64,000 nt of DNA, from NCBI RefSeq assembly GCF_045037415.1, contig NZ_CP173438.1; one strand, given 5' to 3'. The notes beneath the pieces are model-generated. The model was not told the origin of the DNA. It made no database searches and worked only from the letters and a program-made list of their open reading frames with translations. This stretch comes from Escherichia coli. Lineage in GTDB: Bacteria > Pseudomonadota > Gammaproteobacteria > Enterobacterales > Enterobacteriaceae. Shown in pieces: positions 1 to 29,724 of this stretch. The position numbers were made by a program, and so were the translations under genes. Position 1 is the stretch's first letter. Each line of letters begins with the position of its first letter.

Positions 1-28
1 GATGGATATTCAAAAAAGAGTGAGTGAC

Positions 29-1726
29 ATGGAACCAAAAACAAAAAAACAGCGTTCGCTTTATATCCCTTACGCTGGCCCTGTATTGCTGGAATTTCCG
101 TTGTTGAATAAAGGCAGCGCCTTCAGCATGGAAGAACGCCGTAACTTCAACCTGCTGGGGTTACTGCCGGAAGTGGTCGAAACCATCGAAGAACAAGCGG
201 AACGAGCATGGATCCAGTATCAGGGATTCAAAACCGAAATCGACAAACACATCTACCTGCGTAACATCCAGGACACTAACGAAACCCTCTTCTACCGTCT
301 GGTAAACAATCATCTTGATGAGATGATGCCAGTCATTTACACCCCAACCGTCGGCGCAGCCTGTGAGCGTTTTTCTGAGATCTACCGCCGTTCACGCGGT
401 GTGTTTATCTCTTACCAGAACCGCCACAATATGGACGATATTCTGCAAAACGTACCAAACCATAATATCAAAGTGATTGTGGTGACTGACGGCGAACGTA
501 TTCTGGGGCTTGGTGACCAGGGCATCGGCGGGATGGGCATTCCGATCGGTAAACTGTCGCTCTATACCGCCTGTGGCGGCATCAGTCCGGCCTATACCCT
601 TCCGGTGGTGCTGGATGTCGGCACCAACAACCAACAGCTGCTTAACGATCCGCTGTATATGGGCTGGCGTAATCCGCGTATCACTGACGATGAATACTAT
701 GAATTCGTTGATGAATTTATCCAGGCTGTGAAACAACGCTGGCCGGACGTACTGTTGCAGTTTGAAGACTTCGCACAAAAAAATGCGATGCCGTTACTTA
801 ACCGCTATCGCAATGAAATTTGTTCTTTTAACGATGACATTCAGGGCACCGCGGCGGTAACAGTCGGCACACTGATCGCAGCCAGCCGCGCGGCAGGCGG
901 TCAGTTAAGCGAGAAAAAAATCGTCTTCCTTGGCGCAGGTTCAGCGGGATGCGGCATTGCCGAAATGATCATCGCCCAGACCCAGCGCGAAGGATTAAGC
1001 GAGGAAGCGGCGCGGCAGAAAGTCTTTATGGTCGATCGCTTTGGCCTGCTGACCGACAAGATGCCGAACCTGCTGCCTTTCCAGACCAAACTGGTGCAGA
1101 AGCGCGAAAATCTCAGTGACTGGGATACCGACAGCGATGTGTTGTCACTGCTGGATGTGGTGCGTAATGTAAAACCAGATATTCTGATTGGCGTCTCAGG
1201 ACAGACCGGGCTGTTTACGGAAGAGATCATCCGTGAGATGCATAAACACTGTCCGCGTCCGATCGTGATGCCGCTGTCTAACCCGACTTCACGCGTGGAA
1301 GCCACACCGCAGGACATTATCGCCTGGACTGAAGGTAACGCGCTGGTCGCCACTGGCAGTCCGTTTAATCCAGTGGTATGGAAAGATAAAATCTACCCTA
1401 TCGCCCAGTGTAACAACGCCTTTATTTTCCCGGGCATCGGGCTGGGTGTTATTGCTTCCGGCGCGTCACGTATCACCGATGAGATGCTGATGTCGGCAAG
1501 TGAAACACTTGCTCAGTATTCGCCGCTGGTCCTGAACGGCGAAGGTCTGGTACTACCGGAACTGAAAGATATTCAGAAAGTCTCCCGCGCAATTGCCTTT
1601 GCGGTTGGCAAAATGGCGCAGCAGCAAGGCGTGGCGGTGAAAACGTCTGCCGAAGCTCTGCAACAGGCCATTGATGATAATTTCTGGCACGCCGAATACC
1701 GCGACTACCGCCGTACCTCCATCTAA
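29..1726 (+). CDS. maeA: NAD-dependent malic enzyme (565 aa); 5' end close to window start, in-frame alternative start at 2
   Basis: ORF 2..1726; translation from [19 protein letters not shown] recognised as E. coli MaeA/SfcA; length fits 565 aa. Confidence 0.93.
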
Positions 1727-1733
1727 GCCTGCG

Positions 1734-1762
1734 CCCGGTAGTGAGGGCTACCGGGCAATTTT
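1734..1762 (+). terminator. Intrinsic terminator downstream of maeA
   Basis: 8-bp stem cccggtag/ctaccggg with 6-nt loop, followed by caattttcctctcccttttt. Confidence 0.55.
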
Positions 1763-1859
1763 CCTCTCCCTTTTTCAGATCTCATCCATACTGGGTAGTG
1801 GCGAATAAATCTCATTTGCCTCACCTGCTATGCAGAACATCATCCGAAAAGGAGGAACT

Positions 1860-2870
1860 ATGAAGGCTGCAGTTGTTACGAAGGATCATCATGTTGACGT
1901 TACGGATAAAACACTGCGCTCACTGAAACATGGCGAAGCCCTGCTGAAAATGGAGTGTTGTGGTGTATGTCATACCGATCTTCATGTTAAGAATGGCGAT
2001 TTTGGTGACAAAACCGGCGTGATTCTGGGACACGAAGGTATTGGTGTGGTGGCAGAAGTTGGCCCTGGTGTTACTTCATTAAAACCAGGCGATCGTGCCA
2101 GCGTGGCGTGGTTCTATGAAGGATGCGGTCATTGCGAATACTGTAACAGTGGTAACGAAACGCTCTGCCGTTCAGTTAAAAATGCCGGATACAGCGTTGA
2201 TGGCGGGATGGCGGAAGAGTGCATCGTGGTCGCCGATTACGCGGTAAAAGTGCCAGATGGTCTGGACTCGGCGGCGGCCAGCAGCATTACCTGTGCGGGG
2301 GTCACTACCTACAAAGCCGTTAAGCTGTCAAAAATTCGTCCAGGACAGTGGATTGCTATCTACGGTCTTGGCGGTCTGGGTAACCTCGCCCTGCAATACG
2401 CGAAGAATGTCTTTAACGCCAAAGTGATCGCCATTGATGTCAATGATGAACAGTTAAAACTGGCAACCAAAATGGGTGCAGATTTAGCGATTAACTCACG
2501 CACCGAAGACGCCGCCAAAATTGTGCAGGAGAAAGCCGGTGGCGCTCACGCAGCGGTGGTGACAGCGGTAGCTAAAGCTGCGTTTAACTCGGCGGTGGAT
2601 GCTGTCCGTGCAGGTGGTCGTGTCGTGGCTGTCGGTCTGCCGCCGGAGTCTATGAGCCTGGACATCCCACGGCTGGTGCTGGATGGTATTGAAGTGGTCG
2701 GTTCGCTGGTCGGCACGCGTCAGGATCTAACCGAAGCCTTCCAGTTTGCCGCCGAAGGCAAAGTGGTGCCGAAAGTCGCCCTGCGTCCGTTAGAGGACAT
2801 CAACACCATCTTTACCGAGATGGAAGAAGGCAAAATCCGTGGCCGTATGGTGATTGATTTCCGTCGCTAA
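1860..2870 (+). CDS. adhP: Zn-dependent alcohol dehydrogenase, propanol-preferring (336 aa)
   Basis: ORF 1830..2870; start taken at ATG 1860 ([11 protein letters not shown]) preceded by aaaaggagg SD; GHEGIG and CGHCEYC zinc-ADH motifs. Confidence 0.93.
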
Positions 2871-2879
2871 GAGGTCTTT

Positions 2880-2907
2880 GCTGCGACTGCCATGTTCGGG
2901 TCGCAGC
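2880..2907 (+). terminator. Possible terminator hairpin after adhP
   Basis: 8-bp stem gctgcgac/gtcgcagc with 12-nt loop, followed by ctgtttcg (weak T tract). Confidence 0.35.
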
Positions 2908-3055
2908 CTGTTTCGCGAGACGCTTTCCGTAATTTCACTCTTCTTCTTTTCCTCCCCCATATTTCCCCTCACAATTCGCGAAAACGTAGCGAAATTTGTT
3001 GCGCTGCACGGAACAATAGTGATAGTGTTCCTTTTGAGGGAACAAGGATGAAGAG

Positions 3056-3333
3056 ATGATAATGAATTTCAGACACAAGGGATTGCGTGACTTGTTTCTT
3101 CTCGGCAAAACCTCCGGCGTTATACCGACGCAAGTCAAACGATTACGCCACCACTCGCTGTGATTGATGCAGCATGCTGTCTTGCTGATATCGATATGCC
3201 CGGTTACCGACTACATCCGTTAAGCGGCGATCGCGATGGAATTTGGGCGATATCTGTCTCGGGCAACTGGCGAATCACATTTGAATTCGTCAATGGCGAT
3301 GCATACATACTGGATTACGAGGACTATCACTGA
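3056..3333 (+). pseudogene. HigB-like (RelE/ParE superfamily) toxin gene disrupted by a frameshift near 3158-3163
   Basis: Frame A 3056..3163 = MIMNFRHKGLRDLFLLGKTSGVIPTQVKRLRHHSL*; frame B 3160..3333 = [57 protein letters not shown]; stop overlaps the yddM ATG (tgATG); pattern matches plasmid-maintenance-killer HigB family as recalled. Confidence 0.6.
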
Positions 3334-3617
3334 TGAAAATGGCCAATCATCCCCGCCCGGGGGACATTATTCAGGAATCACTGGACGAACTTAATGTCAG
3401 CCTGCGCGAGTTTGCCAGAGCAATGGAAATTGCGCCCTCAACGGCAAGCCGATTGCTGACCGGAAAAGCAGCTTTGACGCCAGAAATGGCAATAAAACTT
3501 TCCGTGGTGATCGGCAGTTCGCCGCAAATGTGGCTGAATCTGCAAAATGCCTGGAGTCTGGCAGAGGCGGAAAAAACGGTGGATGTGTCGCGACTGCGCC
3601 GTCTGGTTACGCAATAA
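3333..3617 (+). CDS. yddM: HigA-like XRE-family HTH antitoxin / putative transcriptional regulator (94 aa)
   Basis: ORF 3333..3617; HTH motif [26 protein letters not shown]; positioned immediately 3' of the HigB-like frames. Confidence 0.88.
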
Positions 3618-3645
3618 AAAATGGCGCTTCTTAAAGCGCCATTTT
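3618..3645. terminator. Bidirectional intrinsic terminator between convergent yddM and fdnI
   Basis: 11-bp stem aaaatggcgct/agcgccatttt with 6-nt loop; U-runs on both strands. Confidence 0.65.
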
Positions 3646-3666
3646 CAGCTTAAAGTTCAAAAGAGA

Positions 3667-4320
3667 TTATATCCCTTCTTCACTCTCTTTTTTCGCTTCT
3701 GCCTTCTCGATTTCACGATACCAGCGCGGATGGTGTTTCTTCGCCCAGCGACGGCTCACCTTCCCTTCGATCATCCCTTTAATCGATCCTTTCACCCAGA
3801 ATGCCATATACATATGGATCAGGATGGCGTGGATCAGGATGATACCCGCAGCCGCATGGATCAGCAGGCTATAACGGACAACCTGTATCGGGAAGTACTG
3901 CGCAAAGTACGGACGCCAGATAATCACTCCGGTCACCAGCAGCACGAAAATCATGCTCATGATTGACCAGAACATCATCTTTTGCCCGGCGTTGTACTTA
4001 CCGACATCCGCCACTTTGTGCTCATTGCCTTTTAATACTTCGACAATGTTCAACAGCCACGGAATATCTTTCTTATCCGGGATGTTGTGATGCACAAAAC
4101 GCACAAACATAAACATCAGCGCGACGAAAATCGCAATGCCGAAGAACGGGTGCAAAATGCGTCCCATCTGCGGCGTACCGAAGGTTTGCGTCAGCCATTG
4201 CAGCGTCGGGAAGAAGAACGAAATCCCGGACAGCGCCACCAGGAAGAAGCAAATCACCACGGTCCAGTGACAGGCGCGATCAATAAATTTGGTGCGCACA
4301 ATCATTTTCGACTTACTCAT
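3667..4320 (-). CDS. fdnI: Formate dehydrogenase-N gamma subunit, cytochrome b556 (217 aa)
   Basis: ORF 3667..4362 trimmed to the [12 protein letters not shown] start; membrane protein; start overlaps end of fdnH. Confidence 0.92.
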
Positions 4321-5197
4321 GATTTCCCTCCTCCTCATCGTCCACTTCCTTATTCGGGCCAATACCGATGTAGTGGAAAATCAACCCGGCAAAAGTGGCA
4401 ATAAAGCCAGCCGCTGCCAGCGGTTTCAACGCGCCTTTCCACAGGCTTACCGAGGTATCGATCTTCGGATCTTTCGGCAGACCATGATACAGCTCCGGCT
4501 GATCGGCGTGATGCAGCACGTACATAACGTGCGTACCACCGACCCCTTCCGGGTTGTAGACGCCAGCATGTTCGTAACCACGCGCTTTCAGTTTCGCCAC
4601 GCGCTGTTCCGCCAGCTCCAGCATCTCCTTCTTGGTGCCGAAGTGGATAGCCCCGGTCGGACAGGTTTTCACACAAGCCGGTTCCTGGCCGACGCTGACG
4701 CGATCGACACAGAGCGTGCATTTATATACCCGGTTATCCTCTTTGTTGAGGCGCGGAATATTAAACGGACACCCGGCAATGCAGTAACCACAGCCGATGC
4801 AGTTTTCCGACTGGAAATCGACAATCCCGTTAGCGTACTGAATGATTGCACCAGCAGACGGGCATGCCTTCAGGCAGCCCGGATCTTCACAGTGCATACA
4901 GCCGTCTTTACGGATCAGCCACTCCAGCTTGCCGTTCTGTTCGGTTTCGCTAAAGCGCATCACCGTCCAGGACTTGGCGCTCAGATCGGCGGGGTTATCG
5001 TAAACCCCGACGCAGTGCCCCACTTCATCACGGATGTCGTTCCACTCCGAACACGCCACCTGACAGGCTTTACAGCCGATACAAGTGGAAACGTCGATAA
5101 GTTTCGCGACTTCTGCTTTGTAATCACGCACCTGAGAAGGCGGCGTGATGGAGTTAGTTGCGGACCTTTTGATAATGTCCTGCGTTTCCATAGCCAT
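4313..5197 (-). CDS. fdnH: Formate dehydrogenase-N beta subunit, 4Fe-4S ferredoxin-type (294 aa)
   Basis: ORF 4313..5197; multiple CxxCxxCxxxCP iron-sulfur motifs ([23 protein letters not shown]). Confidence 0.93.
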
Positions 5198-5209
5198 CTG
5201 TTCGCCCCC

Positions 5210-8200
5210 TTACGCCTTCTCGATGTTTACTAAGAACGCTTTATATTCCGGCGTTTGCGAGTTTGCATCACCGACATTCGGCGTCAGAGTGTTAGCGATA
5301 TAACCTTTACGCGCGACACCTTCAAAGCCCCAGTGGATTGGAATACCCACCGTTTCAACCTGCTGACCGTTTACATTCAGCGGTTTCAGACGGCGCGTTA
5401 CCACAGCCACCGCGCGGATAAAGCCACGCTTGCTGGAGACAGTGACACGATCGCCATTGGCAATGCCTTTCGCCGCCGCCAGCGTTTCGCTGATTTCCAC
5501 AAACTGTTCCGGCTGAGCAATTGCGTTGAGCAATGCGTGCTTGGTCCAGGTGTGGAAGTGCTCCGTCAGACGATAGGTCGTACCCACATACGGGAACTGC
5601 TCTTTTTTACCCATCCGCAGCGCGTCTTGTTCATACAGACGAACAACCGGGTTAGACACCACGTTCGGATGCAACGGGTTAGTGCCCAGCGGCGTTTCAA
5701 TTGGCTCGTAGTGTTCCGGGAACGGACCTTCCGCCATTTTGTTGATGGCAAACAGGCGTCCCATCCCTTCCGGTTGCATGATAAACGGCCCGGTTGGCGT
5801 ACCCGGCGCGGCATTGCCGAAGTCCGGAATATCGTTACCCGTCCACTTGCTACCGTTCCACTGGATCAGCATCCGTTTCGGATCCCACGGTTTACCGTTG
5901 ATATCCGCCGAAGCACGGTTGTAGAGTACGCGACGGTTGAGCGGCCACGCCCAGGCCCATCCCAGCGTATTCCCCAGACCGGACGGGTCGGAGTTATCGC
6001 GGTTAGCCATCTGGTTGCCCTGCTCGGTCCAGCTACCGGTGTAGATCCAGCAAGAAGATGCGGTTGTACCGTCATCACGCAGATGTGCAAAGCTACTCAG
6101 CAACTGACCTTTCTTCGCAATCAGCACGCCATTAGCGTCATAGAGATCTTCCAGCGCATAGCCGTTATTCTCTTTCGCCACTTCATCAGACTGCGGTTCG
6201 TGCGGCTGCTTGTAGTTCCAGCTCATCTTCATCAGCGGTTCTACGCCTTTACCACCTTCGGCCTGGTACAGCTCGCGCAGATGATGGTAGATACCCGCCA
6301 GAATTTCGCCGTCGTTACGTGCTTCGCCCGGCGCGTCCTGACCTTTCCAGTGCCACTGCAACCAGCGACCGGAGTTAGCGATAGAACCATCTTCTTCAGC
6401 AAAGCAGGTCGAAGGCAGACGGAATACTTCAGTCTGAATAGATGCCGGATCGACATCGTTCGACTCGCCGTGGTTCTGCCAGAAGGTAGAGGTTTCAGTC
6501 ACCAGCGGATCGATAACCACCATGTACTTCAGCTTGCTCAGGCAGCTCACCACTTTGTTTTTGTCCGGGAAGGACGCAACCGGGTTAAAGCCCTGGCAGA
6601 AATAACCGGTGACTTTACCTTCATCCATCATGTTGAAATACTTGATGACGTCGTAGGTCTGGTCCCACTTCGGCAGCCAGTCGTAGCCCCAGTTGTTCTC
6701 TTTCTGCGCGGCATCGCCGTAGAAAGATTTCATCAGGCTAACGAAAAACTTCGGATAGTTGCTCCAGTAGTTCACCTGATCAGCCAGCGTCGCTTTCGGC
6801 GTGTTCGCTTCCAGATACGACTGCAAATCAACCTGTTTTTCTGACGGCAGCGTCAGATAACCTGGCAGGCTGGTAGAGAGCAGGCCTAAGTCAGTCAGGC
6901 CCTGAATGTTGGAGTGACCACGCAATGCGTTCACGCCGCCACCGGCCATACCCATGTTACCGAGCAGCAACTGGATCATCGCCATCGTACGGATGTTCTG
7001 CGCACCCACGGTGTGCTGCGTCCAGCCCAGCGCGTACAGGAAGGTGGTTGTGCGATCCGGTGCGCTGGTGGAGGCCAGCACTTCACACACTTTCAGGAAG
7101 TCGGCTTTTGGCGTACCGCAAATGTTTTCTACTACGTCCGGCGTGTAGCGGGAAACGTGCGCTTTCAGCAGATTCCATACACAGCGCGGATGAGTCAGCG
7201 TGTCATCGCGTTTCGCATAGCCGTTTTCATCGAACTGATAGTTCCAGGACGACTTATCGTATTGACGTTTTTCAGCGTCGTAGCCGCTGAACAGACCGTC
7301 TTCGAAAGCAAAATCATCACGCACCAGCAGGCTGGCGTTGGTGTAATGCTTAACGTATTCGGCGTTGATTTTGTTGTTTTCGATCAGGTAGCGCAAAACG
7401 CCAGACAGGAACGTAATGTCCGTACCGGAACGAATAGGTGCGTAAATATCCGCCACAGAAGCGGTACGCGTAAAACGGGGATCGACAACGATCAAGGTTG
7501 CATCGTTGTTGTTTTTCGCTTCCATCGCCCAGCGGAAACCGACGGGATGCGCTTCAGCAGCGTTACCGCCCATCACCATTACGACGTTAGCGTTTTTGAT
7601 ATCCACCCAGTGGTTGGTCATCGCACCGCGACCAAATGTTGGAGCAAGACTTGCTACCGTTGGTCCGTGTCAGACGCGCGCCTGGTTGTCTACCGCCAGC
7701 ATCCCGAGGGAGCGGGCAAATTTTTGAGTCAGCATCCCGGTTTCGTTGCTGGCACCGGAAGCACACAGCATACCGGTAGAAAGCCAACGGTTTACCGTTA
7801 CGCCCTGCTCGTTCTTTTCAATAAAGTTAGCGTCACGGTCGGCTTTCATCAGCTTCGCAATACGGGAGAATGCTTCTTCCCAGCTAATGCGCTGCCATTT
7901 GTCAGAACCTGGCGCACGATATTCCGGGTAGCGCAGACGGTTTTCGCTGTTGACATAATCCAGCAAACCGGCCCCTTTCGGGCACAGCGCACCACGACTT
8001 ACCGGATGATCCGGGTCACCTTCAATGTGATAAATCGCTTCTCTGGCGTTTTTCGCGCCATCACCCAGGCTATACATCAATAGCCCGCAACCTACGGAAC
8101 AGTATGTGCAGGTGTTACGGATCTCTTTCGCGCGTAATAATTTGTAGTTTCGCGCCTGAGCCAGTGCTTGCTTCGGGGCAAAGCCCAATGCTGCTACTGT

Positions 8201-8257
8201 TGTTCCCGCCATACCGCCCGCGCAGATTTTAAAAAATTGTCTGCGACTGACGTCCAT
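5210..8257 (-). CDS. fdnG: Formate dehydrogenase-N alpha subunit, selenoprotein (1015 aa) with in-frame UGA at 7670..7672 read as selenocysteine; Tat signal peptide
   Basis: Two in-frame ORFs 7670..8257 (ends ...VDNQARV then TGA) and 5210..7621; intervening codons translate HGPTVASLAPTFGRGA with no other stop; N-terminus MDVSRRQFFK is a twin-arginine motif. Confidence 0.93.
7625..7669 (-). promoter_or_regulatory. SECIS-like region immediately 3' of the fdnG UGA codon
   Basis: mRNA segment CACGGACCAACGGUAGCAAGUCUUGCUCCAACAUUUGGUCGC contains complementary GACCAA/UUGGUC and GCAAG/CUUGC arms; bacterial SECIS elements sit directly downstream of the UGA. Confidence 0.55.
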
Positions 8258-8488
8258 TGCTTTCCTCTTTTTTCAGGGGTATTACTGCGCGAGGAAACTA
8301 ACAGTAAAATTCTGAATCTTTTTGCGCGAAATCAAAAAGAACACGTGTTTGCCACAAAATAATCCGCCTGCGCAAATTGACCTACCTCAATAGCGGTAGA
8401 AAAACGCACCACTGCCTGACAGGCCAGTTAAAAAAATGCTATAAAATTCAGCTTAATTTTTAACGGCAAGAGAGACAAAACAGCGAGC
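8258..8488. promoter_or_regulatory. Divergent fdnG / yddG promoter region with FNR-like site (8322..8335) and NarL-like 7-2-7 heptamer pair (8383..8398)
   Basis: ttgcgcgaaatcaa resembles TTGAT-N4-ATCAA; tacctca-at-agcggta resembles inverted TACYYMT heptamers. Confidence 0.45.
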
Positions 8489-9370
8489 ATGACACGTCAA
8501 AAAGCAACGCTCATAGGGCTAATAGCGATCGTCCTGTGGAGCACGATGGTAGGATTGATTCGCGGTGTCAGTGAGGGACTCGGCCCGGTCGGCGGCGCAG
8601 CTGCTATCTATTCATTAAGCGGGCTGCTGTTAATCTTCACGGTTGGATTTCCGCGTATTCGGCAGATCCCGAAAGGCTATTTACTCGCCGGGAGTCTGTT
8701 ATTCGTCAGCTATGAAATCTGTCTGGCGCTTTCCTTAGGGTATGCGGCGACCCGTCATCAGGCGATTGAAGTGGGGATGGTGAACTATCTATGGCCCAGC
8801 CTGACAATTCTCTTTGCCATTCTGTTTAATGGTCAGAAAACCAACTGGCTGATTGTACCAGGATTATTATTAGCCCTGGTCGGCGTCTGCTGGGTGTTAG
8901 GCGGTGACAATGGGTTACATTATGATGAAATTATCAATAATATCACCACCAGCCCATTGAGTTATTTCCTGGCGTTCATTGGGGCGTTTATCTGGGCAGT
9001 CTACTGCACAGTAACGAATAAATACGCACGCGGATTTAACGGAATTACCGTTTTTGTCCTGCTAACGGGAGCAAGTCTGTGGGTTTACTATTTTCTTACG
9101 CCACAACCAGAAATGGTATTTAGCACGCCCGTCATGATTAAACTCATCTCTGCGGCATTTACCTTAGGATTTGCTTATGCTGCATGGAATGTCGGTATAT
9201 TACATGGCAACGTCACCATAATGGCGGTAGGTTCGTATTTTACGCCCGTCCTTTCCTCAGCGCTTGCAGCCGTGCTGCTCAGCGCCCCGCTGTCGTTCTC
9301 GTTCTGGCAAGGCGCGCTAATGGTCTGCGGCGGTTCCCTGCTCTGCTGGCTGGCGACACGTCGTGGCTAA
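8489..9370 (+). CDS. yddG: Aromatic amino acid exporter, DMT family (293 aa)
   Basis: ORF 8489..9370; MTRQKATLIGLIAIVLWSTMVGL recognised as YddG; polytopic membrane protein. Confidence 0.88.
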   Translation: MTRQKATLIGLIAIVLWSTMVGLIRGVSEGLGPVGGAAAIYSLSGLLLIFTVGFPRIRQIPKGYLLAGSLLFVSYEICLALSLGYAATRHQAIEVGMVNYLWPSLTILFAILFNGQKTNWLIVPGLLLALVGVCWVLGGDNGLHYDEIINNITTSPLSYFLAFIGAFIWAVYCTVTNKYARGFNGITVFVLLTGASLWVYYFLTPQPEMVFSTPVMIKLISAAFTLGFAYAAWNVGILHGNVTIMAVGSYFTPVLSSALAAVLLSAPLSFSFWQGALMVCGGSLLCWLATRRG

Positions 9371-9642
9371 AATAATTGTCGGGTCTACGGCCCGGCAGTT
9401 AATCAGATAAATTCTGACAATATTAAAAAATAAATTTCAAATACCAGAAAGTCATTTTAGTTACATTTAGTAACACATATCTGTCTGTTTAATCCACATT
9501 CTGCCCCCGCAGTTACGCTTTCTTATCTATTCTTCTAATCAGCACTTCACCTGATTCATCCTTAATTCTAATAACTGGCTATTGCGCCTTACCTCCTGTT
9601 TTGTCTTTTTTTCATTACCAATGTGTGCATGTGAGGAACAAT

Positions 9643-11031
9643 ATGGCACTGCAAAATGAGAAAAATAGTCGTTATCTTTTACGCGACTGGAAACCAGAAA
9701 ATCCGGCCTTCTGGGAAAATAAAGGAAAGCATATTGCACGAAGAAACCTCTGGATATCAGTCAGTTGTCTACTTCTTGCCTTCTGTGTCTGGATGCTATT
9801 TAGCGCAGTTACTGTTAATCTCAATAAAATCGGTTTTAATTTTACTACCGATCAACTCTTTTTATTAACCGCATTACCCTCCATTTCTGGCGCATTATTG
9901 CGTGTCCCCTACTCCTTTATGGTGCCTATATTCGGTGGACGCCGATGGACGGTTTTTAGTACTGCAATCCTGATTATTCCTTGCGTCTGGCTCGGAATTG
10001 CCGTGCAGAATCCGAATACTCCTTTTGGGATATTTATCGTTATCGCTTTGCTATGCGGTTTTGCAGGTGCGAACTTTGCTTCGAGCATGGGCAATATCAG
10101 TTTCTTCTTTCCAAAAGCCAAACAAGGGAGCGCTCTTGGGATTAATGGCGGATTAGGAAACTTAGGTGTAAGTGTAATGCAGCTGGTTGCACCGCTGGTC
10201 ATTTTTGTCCCCGTATTTGCCTTTCTCGGCGTCAATGGCGTACCGCAGGCCGACGGTTCGGTGATGTCGCTGGCGAATGCCGCATGGATTTGGGTGCCAT
10301 TACTGGCGATTGCCACGATCGCCGCCTGGTCAGGGATGAATGATATCGCCAGTTCACGCGCCTCAATTGCCGACCAGCTCCCTGTCTTACAACGCCTGCA
10401 TCTCTGGCTGCTGAGCCTGCTTTACCTTGCCACCTTCGGTTCGTTTATCGGTTTTTCTGCGGGTTTTGCCATGCTGGCAAAAACCCAGTTCCCGGATGTG
10501 AATATTCTGCGCCTGGCGTTCTTTGGCCCATTTATCGGTGCCATCGCGCGATCGGTTGGTGGTGCTATTTCCGATAAATTCGGCGGCGTGCGGGTGACGT
10601 TGATCAACTTCATTTTTATGGCGATTTTCAGCGCCCTGCTGTTCCTTACCTTACCGGGCACAGGCTCCGGTAATTTCATCGCATTTTACGCCGTATTTAT
10701 GGGGCTGTTTCTGACCGCGGGTCTGGGAAGTGGTTCTACTTTCCAGATGATCGCCGTCATCTTTCGCCAGATAACAATTTATCGGGTGAAGATGAAAGGC
10801 GGTAGTGATGAGCAAGCTCAAAGAGAAGCCGTCACCGAAACGGCAGCCGCTCTGGGCTTTATCTCAGCCATTGGCGCAGTGGGCGGCTTTTTTATTCCGC
10901 AGGCGTTTGGCATGTCGCTCAATATGACCGGCTCTCCGGTGGGCGCGATGAAAGTGTTTTTAATCTTCTACATCGTTTGTGTGCTACTGACCTGGCTGGT
11001 TTATGGTCGGCGGAAGTTCAGCCAAAAATAA
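9643..11031 (+). CDS. narU: Nitrate/nitrite transporter, MFS (462 aa)
   Basis: ORF 9601..11031 trimmed to ATG 9643 (MALQNEKNSRYLLRDW); multi-TM MFS protein. Confidence 0.88.
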   Translation: MALQNEKNSRYLLRDWKPENPAFWENKGKHIARRNLWISVSCLLLAFCVWMLFSAVTVNLNKIGFNFTTDQLFLLTALPSISGALLRVPYSFMVPIFGGRRWTVFSTAILIIPCVWLGIAVQNPNTPFGIFIVIALLCGFAGANFASSMGNISFFFPKAKQGSALGINGGLGNLGVSVMQLVAPLVIFVPVFAFLGVNGVPQADGSVMSLANAAWIWVPLLAIATIAAWSGMNDIASSRASIADQLPVLQRLHLWLLSLLYLATFGSFIGFSAGFAMLAKTQFPDVNILRLAFFGPFIGAIARSVGGAISDKFGGVRVTLINFIFMAIFSALLFLTLPGTGSGNFIAFYAVFMGLFLTAGLGSGSTFQMIAVIFRQITIYRVKMKGGSDEQAQREAVTETAAALGFISAIGAVGGFFIPQAFGMSLNMTGSPVGAMKVFLIFYIVCVLLTWLVYGRRKFSQK

Positions 11032-11125
11032 GAGATCGATGCCTGACACGTCTTATCAGGCTACAACCGTGTCGCATCCGACAAGGCATCAGATCCCAAT
11101 TCATTCCTGGAGCAGGAGTTATGTC

Positions 11126-14100
11126 ATGAGTAAACTTTTGGATCGCTTTCGCTACTTCAAACAAAAGGGCGAAATCTTTGCCGATGGTCACGGACAGGTG
11201 ATGCATAGCAACCGCGACTGGGAGGACAGCTATCGCCAGCGTTGGCAGTTCGACAAAATCGTGCGTTCCACCCACGGTGTTAACTGTACAGGCTCCTGTA
11301 GCTGGAAAATCTACGTTAAAAATGGTCTGGTGACCTGGGAAATCCAACAGACCGATTACCCGCGCACTCGCCCTGACCTGCCGAATCACGAACCTCGCGG
11401 CTGCCCGCGTGGCGCAAGTTACTCCTGGTATCTCTACAGCGCGAACCGCCTGAAATACCCGCTCATTCGTAAACGACTGATTGAACTGTGGCGCGAAGCC
11501 CTCAAGCAACACAGCGATCCGGTACTGGCGTGGGCATCGATTATGAACGATCCGCAAAAGTGCCTGAGCTACAAACAAGTGCGTGGACGCGGTGGTTTTA
11601 TCCGCTCCAACTGGCAGGAGCTAAATCAGCTGATTGCCGCCGCTAACGTCTGGACCATCAAAACTTACGGCCCGGATCGCGTTGCCGGTTTCTCGCCGAT
11701 TCCGGCGATGTCGATGGTTTCTTACGCTGCCGGAACACGCTATCTGTCGCTGTTAGGTGGCACCTGTTTAAGCTTCTACGACTGGTATTGCGACCTGCCG
11801 CCCGCCTCGCCGATGACCTGGGGCGAGCAAACCGACGTACCGGAATCTGCCGACTGGTATAACTCCAGTTACATCATCGCCTGGGGGTCTAACGTACCGC
11901 AGACACGTACGCCGGACGCCCATTTCTTTACCGAAGTACGCTACAAAGGCACTAAAACCATCGCCATTACCCCTGACTACTCTGAAGTGGCCAAATTGTG
12001 CGACCAGTGGCTGGCACCGAAACAAGGCACTGATAGTGCCCTGGCAATGGCAATGGGCCATGTCATTTTAAAAGAGTTTCATCTCGATAATCCCAGCGAT
12101 TATTTTATCAACTACTGCCGCCGCTACAGCGACATGCCGATGCTGGTAATGCTGGAACCTCGCGACGACGGCAGCTACGTTCCCGGGCGCATGGTCCGCG
12201 CATCTGACCTGGTGGATGGACTGGGCGAAAGCAATAATCCGCAGTGGAAAACCGTGGCAGTTAATACCGCAGGTGAATTGGTAGTGCCGAACGGTTCGAT
12301 TGGTTTTCGTTGGGGAGAAAAAGGCAAATGGAACCTGGAATCCATTGCCGCCGGTACGGAAACCGAATTGTCGTTAACCCTGCTCGGTCAACATGACGCC
12401 GTTGCAGGCGTGGCCTTCCCCTACTTTGGAGGCATTGAAAATCCGCATTTTCGCAGCGTAAAACACAATCCTGTCCTGGTGCGCCAATTGCCCGTTAAAA
12501 ATCTGACATTAGCCGATGGTAGCACCTGTCCGGTGGTCAGCGTTTATGATCTGGTACTGGCAAATTACGGCCTCGATCGCGGGCTGGAAGATGAAAACAG
12601 CGCGAAAGATTACGCTGAAATCAAACCTTACACCCCTGCCTGGGGCGAGCAAATTACCGGCGTACCGCGCCAGTATATTGAAACCATCGCCCGTGAATTT
12701 GCCGATACCGCTCATAAAACGCATGGGCGCTCGATGATTATTCTCGGCGCAGGTGTTAACCACTGGTATCACATGGACATGAACTACCGCGGGATGATCA
12801 ATATGCTGATCTTCTGCGGTTGTGTCGGGCAAAGCGGCGGCGGCTGGGCGCACTATGTCGGTCAGGAAAAACTGCGCCCACAAACCGGCTGGTTGCCGCT
12901 GGCCTTTGCGTTCGACTGGAACCGTCCACCGCGCCAGATGAACAGCACCTCGTTTTTCTACAATCACTCCAGCCAGTGGCGCTATGAAAAAGTCACCGCG
13001 CAGGAATTGCTCTCACCGCTCGCCGATGCCAGTAAATACAGCGGTCACCTGATTGATTTCAACGTTCGCGCCGAACGTATGGGCTGGCTCCCTTCTGCGC
13101 CGCAGCTGGGGCGTAACCCGCTCTCCCTGAAAGCTGAAGCCGACAAGGCCGGATTATCCCCCACAGAATTTACCGCCCAGGCGCTGAAATCGGGCGATTT
13201 ACGTATGGCCTGCGAACAACCAGATAGCGGCAGCAATCATCCGCGTAATTTGTTTGTCTGGCGTTCTAACCTGCTTGGCTCCTCCGGCAAAGGCCACGAG
13301 TATATGCAGAAGTATCTGCTGGGGACCGAAAGCGGGATTCAGGGAGAGGAACTCGGTGCCAGCGACGGGATCAAACCAGAAGAAGTCGAGTGGCAAACTG
13401 CGGCGATTGAAGGCAAGCTCGACCTGCTGGTGACGCTCGATTTCCGCATGTCCAGTACCTGCCTGTTCTCCGATATCGTTCTGCCCACCGCCACCTGGTA
13501 CGAAAAAGACGATATGAATACCTCGGATATGCATCCGTTTATTCATCCGCTTTCTGCGGCGGTCGATCCGGCGTGGGAATCACGCAGCGACTGGGAAATC
13601 TACAAAGGTATCGCTAAAGCCTTTTCGCAAGTGTGCGTGGGGCATCTCGGCAAAGAAACCGACGTGGTATTACAACCACTGCTGCATGACTCCCCGGCAG
13701 AGCTTTCACAGCCGTGTGAAGTGCTCGACTGGCGCAAAGGCGAGTGCGATCTGATTCCAGGCAAAACCGCGCCGAATATTGTGGCGGTGGAGCGCGACTA
13801 CCCTGCTACCTATGAACGCTTTACCTCGCTCGGGCCATTGATGGACAAACTTGGCAACGGAGGTAAAGGGATTTCGTGGAATACCCAGGATGAAATTGAT
13901 TTCCTCGGTAAACTCAATTACACCAAGCGTGATGGCCCGGCACAGGGGCGTCCGCTGATTGATACCGCGATTGATGCCTCAGAAGTGATTCTGGCGCTGG
14001 CACCGGAAACCAACGGCCATGTTGCAGTCAAAGCGTGGCAAGCGCTGGGCGAGATCACCGGACGCGAACATACCCATCTGGCGCTGCACAAAGAGGACGA

Positions 14101-14866
14101 GAAGATTCGCTTTCGCGATATTCAGGCGCAGCCGCGTAAAATTATCTCCAGCCCCACATGGTCTGGTCTGGAAAGCGATCACGTCTCCTATAATGCGGGA
14201 TACACCAACGTTCATGAGCTAATTCCGTGGCGCACACTGTCGGGCCGTCAACAGCTTTATCAGGATCATCCGTGGATGCGTGCCTTTGGTGAAAGCCTGG
14301 TGGCTTATCGCCCGCCTATCGACACCCGCAGTGTCAGTGAAATGCGCCAAATCCCGCCAAACGGCTTCCCGGAAAAAGCCCTTAACTTCCTGACACCGCA
14401 CCAGAAATGGGGCATTCACTCAACCTACAGTGAAAACCTGCTAATGCTGACGCTCTCTCGCGGTGGACCGATTGTCTGGATCAGCGAAACCGATGCCCGT
14501 GAACTGACCATTGTCGATAACGACTGGGTGGAAGTGTTTAACGCCAATGGCGCGCTGACGGCCCGCGCGGTGGTCAGCCAGCGTGTACCGCCGGGCATGA
14601 CCATGATGTATCACGCTCAGGAACGCATTATGAATATTCCTGGTTCGGAAGTAACCGGCATGCGCGGCGGCATTCATAACTCGGTCACCCGCGTTTGTCC
14701 GAAACCAACACATATGATTGGCGGTTACGCGCAGCTGGCCTGGGGCTTTAACTACTACGGCACTGTCGGCTCTAACCGCGACGAATTCATCATGATCCGC
14801 AAGATGAAGAACGTTAACTGGCTGGATGATGAAGGTCGCGATCAGGTTCAGGAGGCGAAAAAATGA
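11126..14866 (+). CDS. narZ: Respiratory nitrate reductase Z alpha subunit (1246 aa)
   Basis: ORF 11003..14866 trimmed to MSKLLDRFRYFKQKGE; molybdopterin oxidoreductase motifs; stop overlaps narY start (ATGA). Confidence 0.93.
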   Translation: MSKLLDRFRYFKQKGEIFADGHGQVMHSNRDWEDSYRQRWQFDKIVRSTHGVNCTGSCSWKIYVKNGLVTWEIQQTDYPRTRPDLPNHEPRGCPRGASYSWYLYSANRLKYPLIRKRLIELWREALKQHSDPVLAWASIMNDPQKCLSYKQVRGRGGFIRSNWQELNQLIAAANVWTIKTYGPDRVAGFSPIPAMSMVSYAAGTRYLSLLGGTCLSFYDWYCDLPPASPMTWGEQTDVPESADWYNSSYIIAWGSNVPQTRTPDAHFFTEVRYKGTKTIAITPDYSEVAKLCDQWLAPKQGTDSALAMAMGHVILKEFHLDNPSDYFINYCRRYSDMPMLVMLEPRDDGSYVPGRMVRASDLVDGLGESNNPQWKTVAVNTAGELVVPNGSIGFRWGEKGKWNLESIAAGTETELSLTLLGQHDAVAGVAFPYFGGIENPHFRSVKHNPVLVRQLPVKNLTLADGSTCPVVSVYDLVLANYGLDRGLEDENSAKDYAEIKPYTPAWGEQITGVPRQYIETIAREFADTAHKTHGRSMIILGAGVNHWYHMDMNYRGMINMLIFCGCVGQSGGGWAHYVGQEKLRPQTGWLPLAFAFDWNRPPRQMNSTSFFYNHSSQWRYEKVTAQELLSPLADASKYSGHLIDFNVRAERMGWLPSAPQLGRNPLSLKAEADKAGLSPTEFTAQALKSGDLRMACEQPDSGSNHPRNLFVWRSNLLGSSGKGHEYMQKYLLGTESGIQGEELGASDGIKPEEVEWQTAAIEGKLDLLVTLDFRMSSTCLFSDIVLPTATWYEKDDMNTSDMHPFIHPLSAAVDPAWESRSDWEIYKGIAKAFSQVCVGHLGKETDVVLQPLLHDSPAELSQPCEVLDWRKGECDLIPGKTAPNIVAVERDYPATYERFTSLGPLMDKLGNGGKGISWNTQDEIDFLGKLNYTKRDGPAQGRPLIDTAIDASEVILALAPETNGHVAVKAWQALGEITGREHTHLALHKEDEKIRFRDIQAQPRKIISSPTWSGLESDHVSYNAGYTNVHELIPWRTLSGRQQLYQDHPWMRAFGESLVAYRPPIDTRSVSEMRQIPPNGFPEKALNFLTPHQKWGIHSTYSENLLMLTLSRGGPIVWISETDARELTIVDNDWVEVFNANGALTARAVVSQRVPPGMTMMYHAQERIMNIPGSEVTGMRGGIHNSVTRVCPKPTHMIGGYAQLAWGFNYYGTVGSNRDEFIMIRKMKNVNWLDDEGRDQVQEAKK

Positions 14867-16407
14867 AAATACGTTCGCAAGTCGGCATGGTGCTTAACCT
14901 CGATAAATGTATCGGCTGCCATACCTGTTCGGTGACCTGTAAAAACGTCTGGACCGGTCGCGAAGGCATGGAGTACGCATGGTTTAACAACGTCGAAACC
15001 AAACCGGGCATTGGTTATCCGAAAAACTGGGAAGATCAGGATGAGTGGCAAGGTGGCTGGGTGCGTGATGTGAATGGCAAGATACGCCCGCGTCTGGGCA
15101 GCAAGATGGGCGTAATAACCAAAATTTTCGCCAACCCGGTAGTGCCGCAGATTGACGATTACTACGAACCTTTCACCTTCGACTACGAACATTTGCATAG
15201 CGCGCCGGAAGGCAAACATATTCCCACCGCCCGTCCGCGTTCACTGATTGACGGCAAACGGATGGACAAAGTGATCTGGGGCCCAAACTGGGAAGAACTG
15301 CTGGGCGGCGAATTTGAAAAACGAGCCCGCGACCGCAACTTCGAGGCCATGCAAAAGGAGATGTACGGGCAGTTTGAAAACACCTTCATGATGTACCTGC
15401 CGCGCCTGTGCGAACACTGCCTCAATCCCAGCTGCGTGGCGACCTGCCCCAGCGGCGCTATCTACAAACGCGAAGAAGACGGCATTGTGCTGATTGATCA
15501 GGATAAATGCCGTGGCTGGCGTTTGTGCATTAGCGGTTGTCCGTACAAAAAAATCTACTTCAACTGGAAAAGCGGCAAGTCAGAAAAATGTATCTTCTGT
15601 TATCCGCGAATTGAGTCCGGTCAGCCAACAGTCTGCTCCGAAACCTGCGTGGGTCGCATCCGGTATCTGGGCGTGCTGCTCTACGACGCCGACCGCATCG
15701 AAGAAGCAGCGAGTACCGAACGAGAGGTCGATCTCTATGAACGCCAGTGCGAAGTGTTCCTCGATCCGCACGATCCCTCAGTGATCGAAGAAGCCCTGAA
15801 ACAAGGTATTCCACAAAACGTGATTGACGCTGCCCAGCGTTCGCCTGTCTACAAAATGGCGATGGACTGGAAACTGGCGCTACCGCTGCACCCTGAATAC
15901 CGCACCCTGCCGATGGTCTGGTACGTTCCTCCGCTGTCACCGATTCAGTCCTACGCTGATGCGGGAGGTTTGCCGAAAAGCGAAGGCGTGCTGCCCGCCA
16001 TCGAAAGCCTGCGTATTCCGGTGCAATATCTCGCCAATATGTTGAGTGCCGGTGATACCGGTCCGGTACTGCGGGCGCTGAAACGGATGATGGCGATGCG
16101 CCACTATATGCGTTCACAAACCGTGGAAGGCGTTACTGATACTCGTGCCATCGACGAAGTAGGTCTGAGCGTCGCCCAGGTCGAAGAGATGTATCGTTAC
16201 CTCGCCATTGCCAACTATGAAGATCGTTTCGTCATCCCGACAAGCCATCGGGAAATGGCGGGCGATGCCTTCGCAGAACGCAACGGCTGCGGTTTTACCT
16301 TTGGCGACGGTTGCCACGGTTCGGACAGCAAATTCAACCTGTTCAACAGTAGCCGTATCGATGCCATCAACATCACCGAAGTGCGCGACAAAGCGGAGGG
16401 CGAATAA
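14863..16407 (+). CDS. narY: Respiratory nitrate reductase Z beta subunit, Fe-S (514 aa)
   Basis: ORF 14863..16407; CIGCHTCSVTCK and further Cys clusters. Confidence 0.93.
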   Translation: MKIRSQVGMVLNLDKCIGCHTCSVTCKNVWTGREGMEYAWFNNVETKPGIGYPKNWEDQDEWQGGWVRDVNGKIRPRLGSKMGVITKIFANPVVPQIDDYYEPFTFDYEHLHSAPEGKHIPTARPRSLIDGKRMDKVIWGPNWEELLGGEFEKRARDRNFEAMQKEMYGQFENTFMMYLPRLCEHCLNPSCVATCPSGAIYKREEDGIVLIDQDKCRGWRLCISGCPYKKIYFNWKSGKSEKCIFCYPRIESGQPTVCSETCVGRIRYLGVLLYDADRIEEAASTEREVDLYERQCEVFLDPHDPSVIEEALKQGIPQNVIDAAQRSPVYKMAMDWKLALPLHPEYRTLPMVWYVPPLSPIQSYADAGGLPKSEGVLPAIESLRIPVQYLANMLSAGDTGPVLRALKRMMAMRHYMRSQTVEGVTDTRAIDEVGLSVAQVEEMYRYLAIANYEDRFVIPTSHREMAGDAFAERNGCGFTFGDGCHGSDSKFNLFNSSRIDAINITEVRDKAEGE

Positions 16408-17102
16408 TGCAGATCCTCAAAGTGCTCGGCCTGTTGATGGAGTACCCAGACGAGTTGTTGTGGGAGTGTAAGGACGACGCGCTGGCGCTTATCCGCCGCG
16501 ACGCGCCGATGCTCACCGATTTTGCACTCGACCTGCTCAACGCCCCGCTGCTGGATAAACAGGCCGAATGGTGTGAAGTGTTTGACCGCGGGCGCACCAC
16601 GTCGCTGCTGCTGTTTGAACATGTTCATGCCGAGTCCCGCGATCGCGGCCAGGCAATGGTGGACCTGCTGGCGGAGTATGAAAAGGTCGGTCTGCAACTG
16701 AATTGTAGGGAACTGCCCGATTATCTACCGCTGTATCTGGAGTATTTAAGCGTACTTCCGGACGATCAGGCGAAAGAAGGATTACTCAACGTTGCGCCGA
16801 TCCTCACCCTGCTTGGCGGACGCTTAAAACAACGCGAGGCACCGTGGTACGCGTTATTTGACGCCCTGTTGCAACTGGCAGGAAGCCCTCTGTCAAGTGA
16901 CAGTGTCACAAAACAGATTCGCAGTGAAGAGCGTGACGACACCCGCCAGGCGCTGGATGCGGTGTGGGAAGAAGAACAGGTGAAGTTTATTGAAGATAAC
17001 GCCACGGCGTGTGACAGCTCGCCGCTTAATCAATATCAGCGACGCTTTAGCCAGGATGTCGCGCCGCAGTATGTCGACATCAGTGCGGGAGGTGGGAAAT
17101 GA
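16407..17102 (+). CDS. narW: Nitrate reductase Z assembly chaperone (231 aa)
   Basis: ORF 16407..17102; start overlaps narY stop. Confidence 0.88.
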
Positions 17103-17779
17103 TTCAGTATCTGAACGTCTTTTTTTACGATATCTACCCGTACTTGTGTGGCACGGTTTTTATCCTTGGAAGCTGGCTGCGCTACGACTACGGGCAGTAC
17201 ACCTGGCGCGCCGCCTCCAGCCAGATGCTGGATAAACGCGGGATGGTGCTGTGGTCAAACTTGTTCCATATCGGCATTTTGGGGATTTTCTTCGGGCACC
17301 TGTTCGGCATGTTAACGCCACACTGGATGTACGCGTGGTTTCTGCCGGTGGCGGTAAAACAGCAGATGGCGATGATCCTCGGCGGAATATGCGGGGTATT
17401 GACGCTGATTGGCGGTGCGGGGCTACTGGTGCGTCGTTTAACAAATCCGCGTATCAGGGCGACGTCTTCTGGTGCGGATATCCTGATCCTCGCCATTTTG
17501 TTAATTCAGTGCATTCTCGGGTTAACCACCATTCCTTTTTCAGCACAACATCCGGACGGCAGTGAAATGATGAAGCTGGTGGGCTGGGCGCAAAGCATTG
17601 TCACTTTCCAGGGCGGTGCATCTACGCATCTTGATGGTGTCGCCTTTATATTCCGCGTTCATCTGGTGCTTGGAATGACCATCTTCCTGCTCTTCCCGTT
17701 CACCCGACTGGTGCATGTCTGGAGCGCGCCGTTTGAGTACTTTACTCGTCGGTATCAGATTGTGCGTTCGCGGCGTTAA
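17099..17779 (+). CDS. narV: Respiratory nitrate reductase Z gamma subunit, cytochrome b (226 aa)
   Basis: ORF 17099..17779; membrane heme protein, overlaps narW stop. Confidence 0.9.
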
Positions 17780-17858
17780 TTCTCACGCGGGCCGGATAGC
17801 CCTTCGCTCTCCGGCCACTTGCAGGCTATGATAGTTCTCCAGCCACAGGAGAACGTTA

Positions 17859-18752
17859 ATGAAACCGCAAGTGTACCACGTCGATGCTTTTACCTCTCAA
17901 CCGTTTCGCGGCAATTCTGCCGGTGTTGTTTTCCCCGCCGATAATCTCAGTGAAGCGCAAATGCAGCTTATCGCCCGCGAGTTAGGTCATTCGGAAACTG
18001 CTTTTCTGCTGCACAGCGACGACAGCGATGTGCGCATCCGCTACTTTACGCCAACGGTTGAAGTGCCAATTTGCGGTCACGCGACGGTGGCTGCGCACTA
18101 TGTACGTTCAAAGGTATTAGGTTTGGGAAATTGCACGGTCTGGCAAACGTCGCTGGCAGGAAAACATCGTGTGACTATCGAAAAGCAAAATGATGATTAT
18201 CGTATTTCGCTGGAACAAGGTACGCCAGGCTTTGAGCCACCACTGACAGGTGAAACACGTGCAGCGATTATCAACGCGCTTCATCTCACTGAGGACGATA
18301 TTCTGCCAGGCTTGCCAATTCAGGTGGCAACAACAGGACACTCAAAAGTGATGATCCCGTTGAAACCAGAAGTGGATATCGACGCCCTTTCGCCTGATCT
18401 TGCTGCGTTGACCGCTATCAGCAAACAGATTGGCTGCAATGGTTTCTTCCCGTTCCAGATCCGCCCAGGCAAAAGCGAAACCGACGGTCGCATGTTCTCG
18501 CCTGCGATTGGTATTGTGGAAGATCCGGTGACCGGGAATGCCAATGGTCCGATGGGCGCATGGTTAGTACATCACAACGTATTGCCCCACGATGGCAACG
18601 TGTTGCGTGTTAAAGGCCATCAGGGGCGCGCATTGGGGCGTGATGGTGTAATTGATGTGACGGTGACAATTCGCGATAACCAACCGGAGAAAGTTACCAT
18701 TTCCGGCACGGCGGTGATTCTATTCCATGCTGAATGGGCCATTGATTTTTGA
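17859..18752 (+). CDS. yddE: PhzF-family isomerase-like protein (297 aa)
   Basis: ORF 17859..18752; recognised as YddE. Confidence 0.85.
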   Translation: MKPQVYHVDAFTSQPFRGNSAGVVFPADNLSEAQMQLIARELGHSETAFLLHSDDSDVRIRYFTPTVEVPICGHATVAAHYVRSKVLGLGNCTVWQTSLAGKHRVTIEKQNDDYRISLEQGTPGFEPPLTGETRAAIINALHLTEDDILPGLPIQVATTGHSKVMIPLKPEVDIDALSPDLAALTAISKQIGCNGFFPFQIRPGKSETDGRMFSPAIGIVEDPVTGNANGPMGAWLVHHNVLPHDGNVLRVKGHQGRALGRDGVIDVTVTIRDNQPEKVTISGTAVILFHAEWAIDF

Positions 18753-18753
18753 T

Positions 18754-18837
18754 GCCGTTGCCTGATGCGCTTCGCTTATCAGGCCTACAACCGGACTAAT
18801 GTAGGCCGGATAAGGCATTTACGCCACATCCGGCAAC
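18754..18837. repeat. REP/BIME-type extragenic palindromic repeats (two units)
   Basis: gccgttgcctgatgcgcttcgcttatcaggcctac and tgtaggccggataaggcatttacgccacatccggca match the E. coli REP consensus family. Confidence 0.6.
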
Positions 18838-18847
18838 CTGACATAAA

Positions 18848-19693
18848 TTATTTTCCCGCCTCCGGGTGCGTATCAAACGCCGCCATCACCAGCGCTAACT
18901 CATCCACAGTAAAGCCATGTTTCGCATCATCTACGCCCAGACCAAACTGTTCCTGCATCACGGCATATAACGACGCCACATCTGGTAGATTTCGCTGCTC
19001 AACTGCGTGCCCATTTTCATAATGGGTAAAATGAAAATTGGTCAGCGTTAGCTTGCCACCGTCCGGCAAATGGCGACACATCAGCAAATGATGGCGAAAA
19101 TGCGACTGCGGCCAGTGCGCCGACCAGAAATTGCCTATCACATAATCGCTTTGTTGCTGCTCGCAGAGATCAAAACGGTACATCGACTGCCAGTGCTGAT
19201 GATGATTAAACTGCAATACCCAATCATCACCCTCTTGCAACAACCGATACTCTCCGTGTGGCGTGGTTTGCATGATATCCGGCATTAAACGAATCGGCGC
19301 GGTTAGCGTCTGCCCACCGAAACCGACATCAGCAATCCATTTTTCCCCTTCCAGTTCCACCAACAGCAAACGATGGGTGCGCGGCGGTAATGCTGGCGGA
19401 TTTGATAACACTACGCGACCTAACAAGCTGCGAACGTTAAACCCCAGCTCGCGTAACACCCGCTCAAACACGCCATTCTGCTCAAAACAGTAACCGCCAC
19501 GACGGGCTATCACCAGTTTCTCTTCCAGCGATTGATCATCAAGCTGTATTTCCCTCGGCAGCAAAACGTCGAGATTTTCAAACGGAATGGTGCAATTGTG
19601 TTTCAGGTGCAATGCACGCAGCGTATCAATATTGGCCGCAGCAGCTCCCAACCAGTTAATACGGGCAAAATAATGATTCAGAATGGGCGTCAT
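18848..19693 (-). CDS. nhoA: Arylamine N-acetyltransferase (281 aa)
   Basis: ORF 18848..19693; MTPILNHYFARINW..., NAT family with catalytic Cys region GGYCFEQN. Confidence 0.9.
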   Translation of the reverse strand: MTPILNHYFARINWLGAAAANIDTLRALHLKHNCTIPFENLDVLLPREIQLDDQSLEEKLVIARRGGYCFEQNGVFERVLRELGFNVRSLLGRVVLSNPPALPPRTHRLLLVELEGEKWIADVGFGGQTLTAPIRLMPDIMQTTPHGEYRLLQEGDDWVLQFNHHQHWQSMYRFDLCEQQQSDYVIGNFWSAHWPQSHFRHHLLMCRHLPDGGKLTLTNFHFTHYENGHAVEQRNLPDVASLYAVMQEQFGLGVDDAKHGFTVDELALVMAAFDTHPEAGK

Positions 19694-19867
19694 CAGGCGT
19701 TTCCCTTAGTGGTTTTCTCAACTTATAACCTGGAATAGACGCCGCACTGGCTATTTTGTGCGATCGCGGACATGCATCACGTTCGCAAATCGCCAATCCC
19801 GTTAATTTCGTTACTTATTGCGTTACGAGCTACGCTTTTAAAACACCCTTCATAGCGAGGCGATATC

Positions 19868-20437: not shown

Positions 20438-20507
20438 GCATTACATGCTGTAACCGGGTTTCTTTATCAAAGCCTCCATTTGGGGCGCGATTTCGGCCAG
20501 GGCAAGA

Positions 20508-23955: not shown

Positions 23956-23960
23956 TTGCA

Positions 23961-27473: not shown

Positions 27474-27483
27474 TTATCTTTAA

Positions 27484-29702: not shown

Positions 29703-29724
29703 TGTAGTGATTTTGCACGCAGCA

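Follow-up and report, generated by a model that had tools for sequence, protein, structure and literature searches.

The analysis concerned a 64,000-nt stretch of Escherichia coli DNA (contig NZ_CP173438.1; the whole 64 kb stretch is referred to as the window) and, within it, fdnG, the gene encoding the alpha subunit of formate dehydrogenase-N (FDH-N), which is interrupted by an in-frame UGA at codon 196. The best explanation for the observations, and one that is almost certainly correct, is that this UGA is recoded as selenocysteine (Sec) through a selenocysteine insertion sequence (SECIS) and SelB, and that the product is exported via twin-arginine translocation (Tat). The identity of the gene, the placement of the UGA at Sec196, the features, conservation and covariation of the SECIS, and the Tat motif all come from the analysis itself. 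The feature is the already known Sec recoding site of E. coli fdnG, described since 1991, and nothing about it is new. The elements on which the argument depends are as follows.

5210..8257, minus strand: fdnG coding sequence (CDS; FDH-N alpha subunit), 1015 codons plus stop, with one in-frame UGA.
7670..7672, minus strand: UGA codon 196, encoding Sec196, a ligand of the Mo centre; opposite X196 of 1kqf_A, in an ARV-U-HGP context.
7617..7675, minus strand: SECIS element, lower and upper helices; Rfam SECIS_3 (RF01989), model positions 1-59 of 59.
7641..7658, minus strand: minimal SelB-binding upper stem-loop, GG-U-AGCAA-GUC-UUGCU-CC, from the minimum free energy (MFE) fold, the Rfam structure and covariation.
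8159..8257, minus strand: Tat signal peptide, residues 1-33, read directly from the translation, with a predicted cleavage site.

When the minus strand of 5210..8257 was translated as one piece, it gave 1015 codons in which the sole internal stop was codon 196. The mechanical list of open reading frames (ORFs) instead contained two entries in a common frame, one of 195 amino acids at 7670..8257 (minus strand) and one of 803 amino acids at 5210..7621 (minus strand). The initial annotation had held that the TGA at 7670..7672 alone separates these two fdnG ORFs and that 16 sense codons link them, and translation bore this out; all of the coordinates it gave were correct. The 16 codons (HGPTVASLAPTFGRGA) separate the TGA from Met213, whose ATG at 7621 is the earliest start-type codon from which the ORF lister could resume. 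The ORF track therefore divides fdnG because UGA codon 196 is counted as a stop in naive ORF calling. In the RefSeq annotation of a near-identical genome, a single CDS with the same coordinates runs across the UGA. Thus fdnG is intact, and its proper annotation is a single selenoprotein CDS with a transl_except at codon 196, as in RefSeq.

The position of the UGA was compared with known selenoproteins using a translation in which Cys was substituted at residue 196. Chain A of PDB entry 1kqf, the major subunit of the E. coli nitrate-inducible formate dehydrogenase, was matched over residues 1-1015 (2393 bits), and codon 196 aligned with the X that denotes selenocysteine in the deposited sequence. 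The ARV-U-HGP context is common to Sec196 of K-12 fdnG, Sec196 of FdoG and Sec140 of FdhF. The alignment with FdnG, FdoG and FdhF that the initial annotation had proposed as a check on the UGA thus placed it opposite Sec.

The sequence immediately 3' of the UGA had been described as containing complementary arms consistent with a SECIS stem-loop, and this description was supported by the RF01989 match, the MFE fold, the positional features of the hairpin and covariation. In a search with Rfam models, 7617..7675 (minus strand) was the sole SECIS match within the 64 kb window. Its SECIS_3 score was 84.3 bits, where the gathering score is 63, and its E-value over the full window was 1.4e-18. With the fdhF-type model SECIS_2 (RF01988), whose gathering score is 70, it reached only 28.8 bits, and the element was assigned to the fdnG/fdoG-type SECIS_3. 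With the U of the UGA taken as position 1, the upper stem-loop comprises nucleotides 15-32. The ViennaRNA MFE fold of the UGA plus 48 nt (-14.6 kcal/mol) contained an upper stem of 5 bp plus 2 bp, a bulged U and a GUC loop; G15 and G16 paired with C31 and C32, and A18-A22 with U26-U30, and this upper part agreed with the Rfam structure. The bulged U17 is at 7656, the loop nucleotides G23-U24-C25 are at 7650..7648, and the spacer between the UGA and the upper stem is 11 nt (CACGGACCAAC). The lower stem reaches approximately 7625, and the range of 7620..7672 that had been suggested for folding was adequate.

The fold was then set against two published descriptions of bacterial SECIS (bSECIS) elements, a comparison that the initial annotation had recommended, and both the apical loop and the bulged U were present. 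In E. coli, a SECIS is defined by a stem-loop that begins 11 nt past the UGA, by the bulging of U17 and by the location of G23 and U24 in its loop, and SelB makes contact with U17 and G23 (PMC8659212); the fdnG hairpin has all of these features in both the MFE fold and the Rfam structure. The bSECIS consensus calls for a loop of 3-9 nt, an upper stem of 4-16 bp, a G in the first two loop positions, a UGA-to-loop distance of 16-37 nt and a free energy of -7.5 kcal/mol or lower (PMC13188914), and the fdnG hairpin has a 3-nt loop (GUC) with the G first, a 7-bp stem, a spacing of 19 nt and a folding energy of -14.6 kcal/mol. The in-frame UGA lies immediately 5' of the hairpin inside the CDS, and homologues carry Sec at the same position.

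The conservation of the element was investigated by scanning one genome per species with a pattern in which TGA-CAY-NNN-CCN and, 39 nt further on, ATGACNAAYCAYTGG were fixed and the upper stem-loop was left unspecified. At least 120 loci were found, and the matches listed contained 82 distinct 72-nt segments, which were aligned without gaps; they span Entero-, Beta- and Gammaproteobacteria, deltaproteobacterial groups, Actinomycetota, Chloroflexi and others. When the SECIS_3 structure was imposed on these 82 sequences, 85.3% of cells were paired, compared with 28-48% when the 3' partners were slid by 1-3 columns. Double-sided changes occurred in 61 cells against a shuffle mean of 21, and none of 500 shuffles gave as high a number. 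Four of the seven upper-stem pairs covaried, among them 18-30 (GC in 52 sequences, AU in 14 and UA in 4) and 21-27 (AU in 45 and CG in 25). Positions 18, 21, 27 and 30 all fall on the third base of a codon (the codons being those for Val, Ala, Leu and Ala); compensation at these two pairs is synonymous, and protein constraint therefore cannot account for it. U17 and U24 were invariant (82/82). Although U24 closes a codon for Ser, Gly or Ala, every sequence has T there, while nearby four-fold sites take all four bases.

Approximately 11 of the 82 sequences have a different upper stem (e.g., TGTACCGGCTCTGGCAGA) that falls outside the SECIS_3 register; these are the source of most of the unpaired cells and were kept in the pair counts. 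The off-register group consists largely of deltaproteobacterial-type sequences, with ...PALAES... or ...AALGES... instead of ...ASLAPT.... The formate dehydrogenase alpha loci L007, L019, L024, L025, L034, L056, L073, L097, L103, L112 and L115, largely of deltaproteobacterial type (...U-H-S/G-P-T-V-P/A-A-L-A/G-E-S...), keep the UGA, U17 and U24 but have an upper stem of different construction, e.g., UGUACCGGCUCUGGCAGA with C at position 23, which misfits the SECIS_3 register.

Within E. coli, 5433 records contain the 59-mer, and in 5432 of them its best match was at least 99% identical; its median copy number was two per genome, which is consistent with the presence of both fdnG and fdoG. This conservation bears directly on the possibility that the TGA is a true nonsense mutation, leaving fdnG as a pseudogene in two ORFs beside an incidental hairpin. 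Of 5426 E. coli genomes, 5425 conserve the 59-nt stretch that includes the TGA, and the TGA recurs, with the downstream frame intact, in the 82 distinct homologues from Proteobacteria, Actinomycetota and Chloroflexi. The split at the TGA in the mechanical ORF list would suit a pseudogene, as would a hairpin whose free energy is no better than that of shuffled sequences, but the residue aligned with the TGA in the full-length protein's crystal structure is Sec196, and the Rfam SECIS_3 match exceeds its gathering score. The conservation of the TGA, the alignment with 1kqf_A and the SECIS_3 score effectively refute the pseudogene, to which next to no probability is given.

The N-terminus of FdnG, which the initial annotation had described as carrying a twin-arginine motif, reads MDVSRRQFFKICAGG..., and the motif is indeed present: SRRQFFK occupies residues 4-10 (8228..8248, minus strand) and fits the S/T-R-R-x-F-L-K consensus, with F replacing L. 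Residues 11-27 form a moderately hydrophobic h-region (ICAGGMAGTTVAALGFA; mean Kyte-Doolittle value 1.51), and ALA/AQA, an AxA cleavage motif, is found at residues 31-35. The signals of FdnG and FdoG are called typical Tat peptides in a review (PMC10609526).

Some of the observations weigh against recoding at a SECIS followed by Tat export. The free energy of a 61-nt stretch was no better than chance when compared with dinucleotide shuffles (z = -0.46; 65 of 200 shuffles folded equally well), and thermodynamic stability was discarded as a discriminator; what makes the SECIS significant is its covariance-model score together with positional features and covariation, and not free energy. The Rfam register leaves two lower-stem positions non-canonical in this sequence (A5-C45 and A9-G41), ViennaRNA favours a register-shifted lower helix, and of the two stems the lower is the less well conserved (81% paired in the homologue set). 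On the N-terminal 45 residues, TIGR01409 scored 12.3 against a cut-off of 16.7 and PF10518 scored 12.8 against a cut-off of 22.7; both are short, low-information models, and both aligned over the right residues. The generic Tat models gave no match in a whole-protein Pfam scan of FdnG. As SRRQFFK is a textbook motif and yet falls below threshold, profile cut-offs can miss an accepted Tat substrate. Lastly, the 64 kb window contains no sel gene, no selC tRNA (tRNA-Sec) and no tRNA of any kind. None of these points contradicts the recoding of UGA 196 or the export of its product.

The steps from the UGA to the mature enzyme can be proposed from established knowledge of SelB binding, Sec insertion and Tat export. 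The upper stem-loop would present the bulged U17 and the loop nucleotides G23 and U24 to the C-terminal domain of SelB, and would thereby hold SelB-GTP with its Sec-tRNA(Sec) at the proper spacing of 11 nt from the UGA. The lower helix would be unwound as the ribosome approaches and, with the UGA in the A site, the tethered complex would deliver Sec in competition with release factor 2 (RF2); this mechanism of delivery is summarised in PMC13188914. Sec196 would then become a ligand of the molybdenum bis(pyranopterin guanine dinucleotide) (Mo-bisPGD) centre. The 1015-residue precursor would receive its cofactor, after which folded FdnGH would be exported by Tat to the periplasmic face of the membrane, where it would join FdnI; Tat-dependent export is known from the literature (PMC10609526). 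The need of the strain for the sel machinery, which the initial annotation had taken as confirmed, is inferred from known biology: as a consequence of the mechanism above, FDH-N would be expected to depend on selA, selB, selC and selD.

Readthrough of the UGA might also occur independently of SelB, e.g., by a near-cognate Trp or Cys tRNA, with the hairpin merely slowing the ribosome. Termination is weak where a UGA precedes C, and the C is invariant in the alignment, but it is part of a conserved His codon. A mere roadblock would need none of U17, G23, U24 or the 11-nt spacing, all of which are conserved at synonymous sites, and the solved structure has Sec at residue 196. The published work on fdnG points the same way: Berg, Li, Heider and Stewart (1991) and Berg, Baron and Stewart (1991), both cited in PMC13188914, reportedly demonstrated that its UGA is decoded as Sec and that an mRNA stem-loop is needed, the latter paper dealing with the stem-loop. 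For K-12 fdnG, whose sequence is identical here, SelB binding and selenium incorporation dependent on SelB and tRNA-Sec have been published, and K-12 selB or selC mutants are reported to lose FDH-N. SelB-independent readthrough was rejected on the SelB-recognition features and the Sec in the structure, and is considered extremely improbable.

SelB-dependent recoding at fdnG can also be compared with that at fdhF, whose SECIS is the reference SelB-binding hairpin (GG-U-UGCA-GGUC-UGCA-CC). The UGA, the 11-nt spacer, the GG/CC base and the U17 bulge are as in fdnG, and U17, G23 and U24 are equidistant from the UGA in the two genes. The fdhF element has an upper stem of 4 bp and a 4-nt GGUC loop (17 nt in all), whereas that of fdnG has 5 bp and a 3-nt GUC loop (18 nt). 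The lower stems differ, and FdhF is cytoplasmic and without a Tat signal, unlike FdnG. The strain carries a canonical, invariant element, one of the three formate dehydrogenase SECIS of E. coli, which are the best characterised in bacteria.

The assignment of the gene as fdnG, also made in the initial annotation, was confirmed by 1kqf_A, TIGR01553, the FdnI model and the chromosomal context. TIGR01553, the NCBIfam equivalog for the formate dehydrogenase-N alpha subunit, scored 1621 bits against a cut-off of 814.2, and the Pfam families PF04879, PF00384 and PF01568 (4Fe-4S, molybdopterin and dinucleotide-binding domains) were all above their cut-offs. The downstream gamma subunit gave 486 bits with the FdnI equivalog NF007558 and 270 bits with the FdoI model NF007924. 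A 1051-nt query was 100% identical to fdnG-annotated DNA in several complete E. coli genomes and was present in 5420 of 5426 genomes, and positions 1..50000 of the window differed from strain SK1144 by 7 mismatches. The neighbouring genes are in the order adhP, a frameshifted relE/parE-like gene, yddM, fdnIHG, yddG, narU and narZ, which is the fdn context. The remaining features of the operon are listed below.

7982..8110, minus strand: [4Fe-4S]-binding cysteines C50, C53, C57 and C92 of FdnG, from the translation and PF04879 (Molybdop_Fe4S4; residues 44-104, E = 1.5e-16).
4313..5197, minus strand: fdnH, the beta (iron-sulfur) subunit, from TIGR01582 (482 bits) and annotation.
3667..4320, minus strand: fdnI, the gamma (cytochrome b) subunit, from NF007558 (486 bits) and annotation.

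Compared with K-12 fdnG, 60 of 3048 nt differ (silent or conservative changes), as do 5 of 1015 residues, which represents strain-level variation with no functional difference. Nucleotides -9 to +66 of the SECIS region match K-12 exactly, and no difference falls between 30 nt upstream and 90 nt downstream of the UGA; the two also share codon position, operon and chromosomal setting.

The paralogue fdoG (formate dehydrogenase-O) was the other candidate for the identity of the locus. Sec196 and a Tat-type N-terminus are common to both genes, the proteins are 77% identical, and 71 nt around the UGA are identical to K-12 fdoG, such that the SECIS alone cannot separate fdnG from fdoG. Over the whole gene, however, identity to K-12 fdoG is 74.6% at the nucleotide level, against the 60 differences from K-12 fdnG. 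The locus is flanked by yddG, narU and narZ and by yddM and adhP, and not by fdhD and fdhE, which adjoin fdoG, and its gamma subunit scores far higher with the FdnI model than with the FdoI model. On identity, flanking genes and the FdnI score, the fdoG assignment was rejected as highly unlikely, leaving fdnG.

The 71-nt stretch is the longest exact run shared by fdnG and fdoG (7605..7675, minus strand; from 3 nt before to 65 nt after the UGA) and is twice as long as the second-longest, which is 35 nt. It covers the whole hairpin and continues for approximately 20 nt on the 3' side, where it takes in GAMTNHW and reaches 7605. It is possible, if rather doubtful, that this identity reflects recurrent gene conversion centred on the SECIS, an RNA-level requirement beyond the defined SECIS, or both, and so more than the combined constraint of protein and hairpin. 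Such a requirement could concern, for example, the spacing or sequence of the region that the ribosome must unwind.

The region upstream of fdnG (8262..8398, minus strand) contains an FNR-like half-palindrome (TTGATTTCGCGCAA) at 8322..8335, which departs from TTGAT-N4-ATCAA at 2 positions. At 8383..8398 there is an inverted heptamer pair of NarL type (TACCGCT-at-TGAGGTA), and a perfect TACCCCT heptamer occupies 8275..8281, no more than 24 nt upstream of the fdnG start codon. A scan for the sigma-70 consensus found no promoter upstream of fdnG; a missing sigma-70 consensus would be expected of an FNR- and NarL-activated, anaerobic, nitrate-induced promoter.

Directly downstream of fdnI, a RelE/ParE-family toxin gene (3056..3617, plus strand) stands beside yddM, which encodes a HigA-family antitoxin, and carries a frameshift according to the annotation of the near-identical genome; together the two look like a decaying type II toxin-antitoxin pair. 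Elsewhere in the window, Rfam models identified the sok antitoxin RNA at 51059..51210 (plus strand; 108 bits), where it overlaps the hokB locus, as well as the small RNA RydC at 51770..51833 (plus strand; 90.5 bits). According to the annotation of the near-identical genome, gene remnants or mobile DNA are present at 50499..50942, 36877..37113, 27550..27773 and 20508..21644 (all minus strand), where a truncated trg lacking its N-terminus, a partial hicB, a GntR-family fragment and the ISEc1 (ISAs1-like) transposase gene ydcC are annotated.

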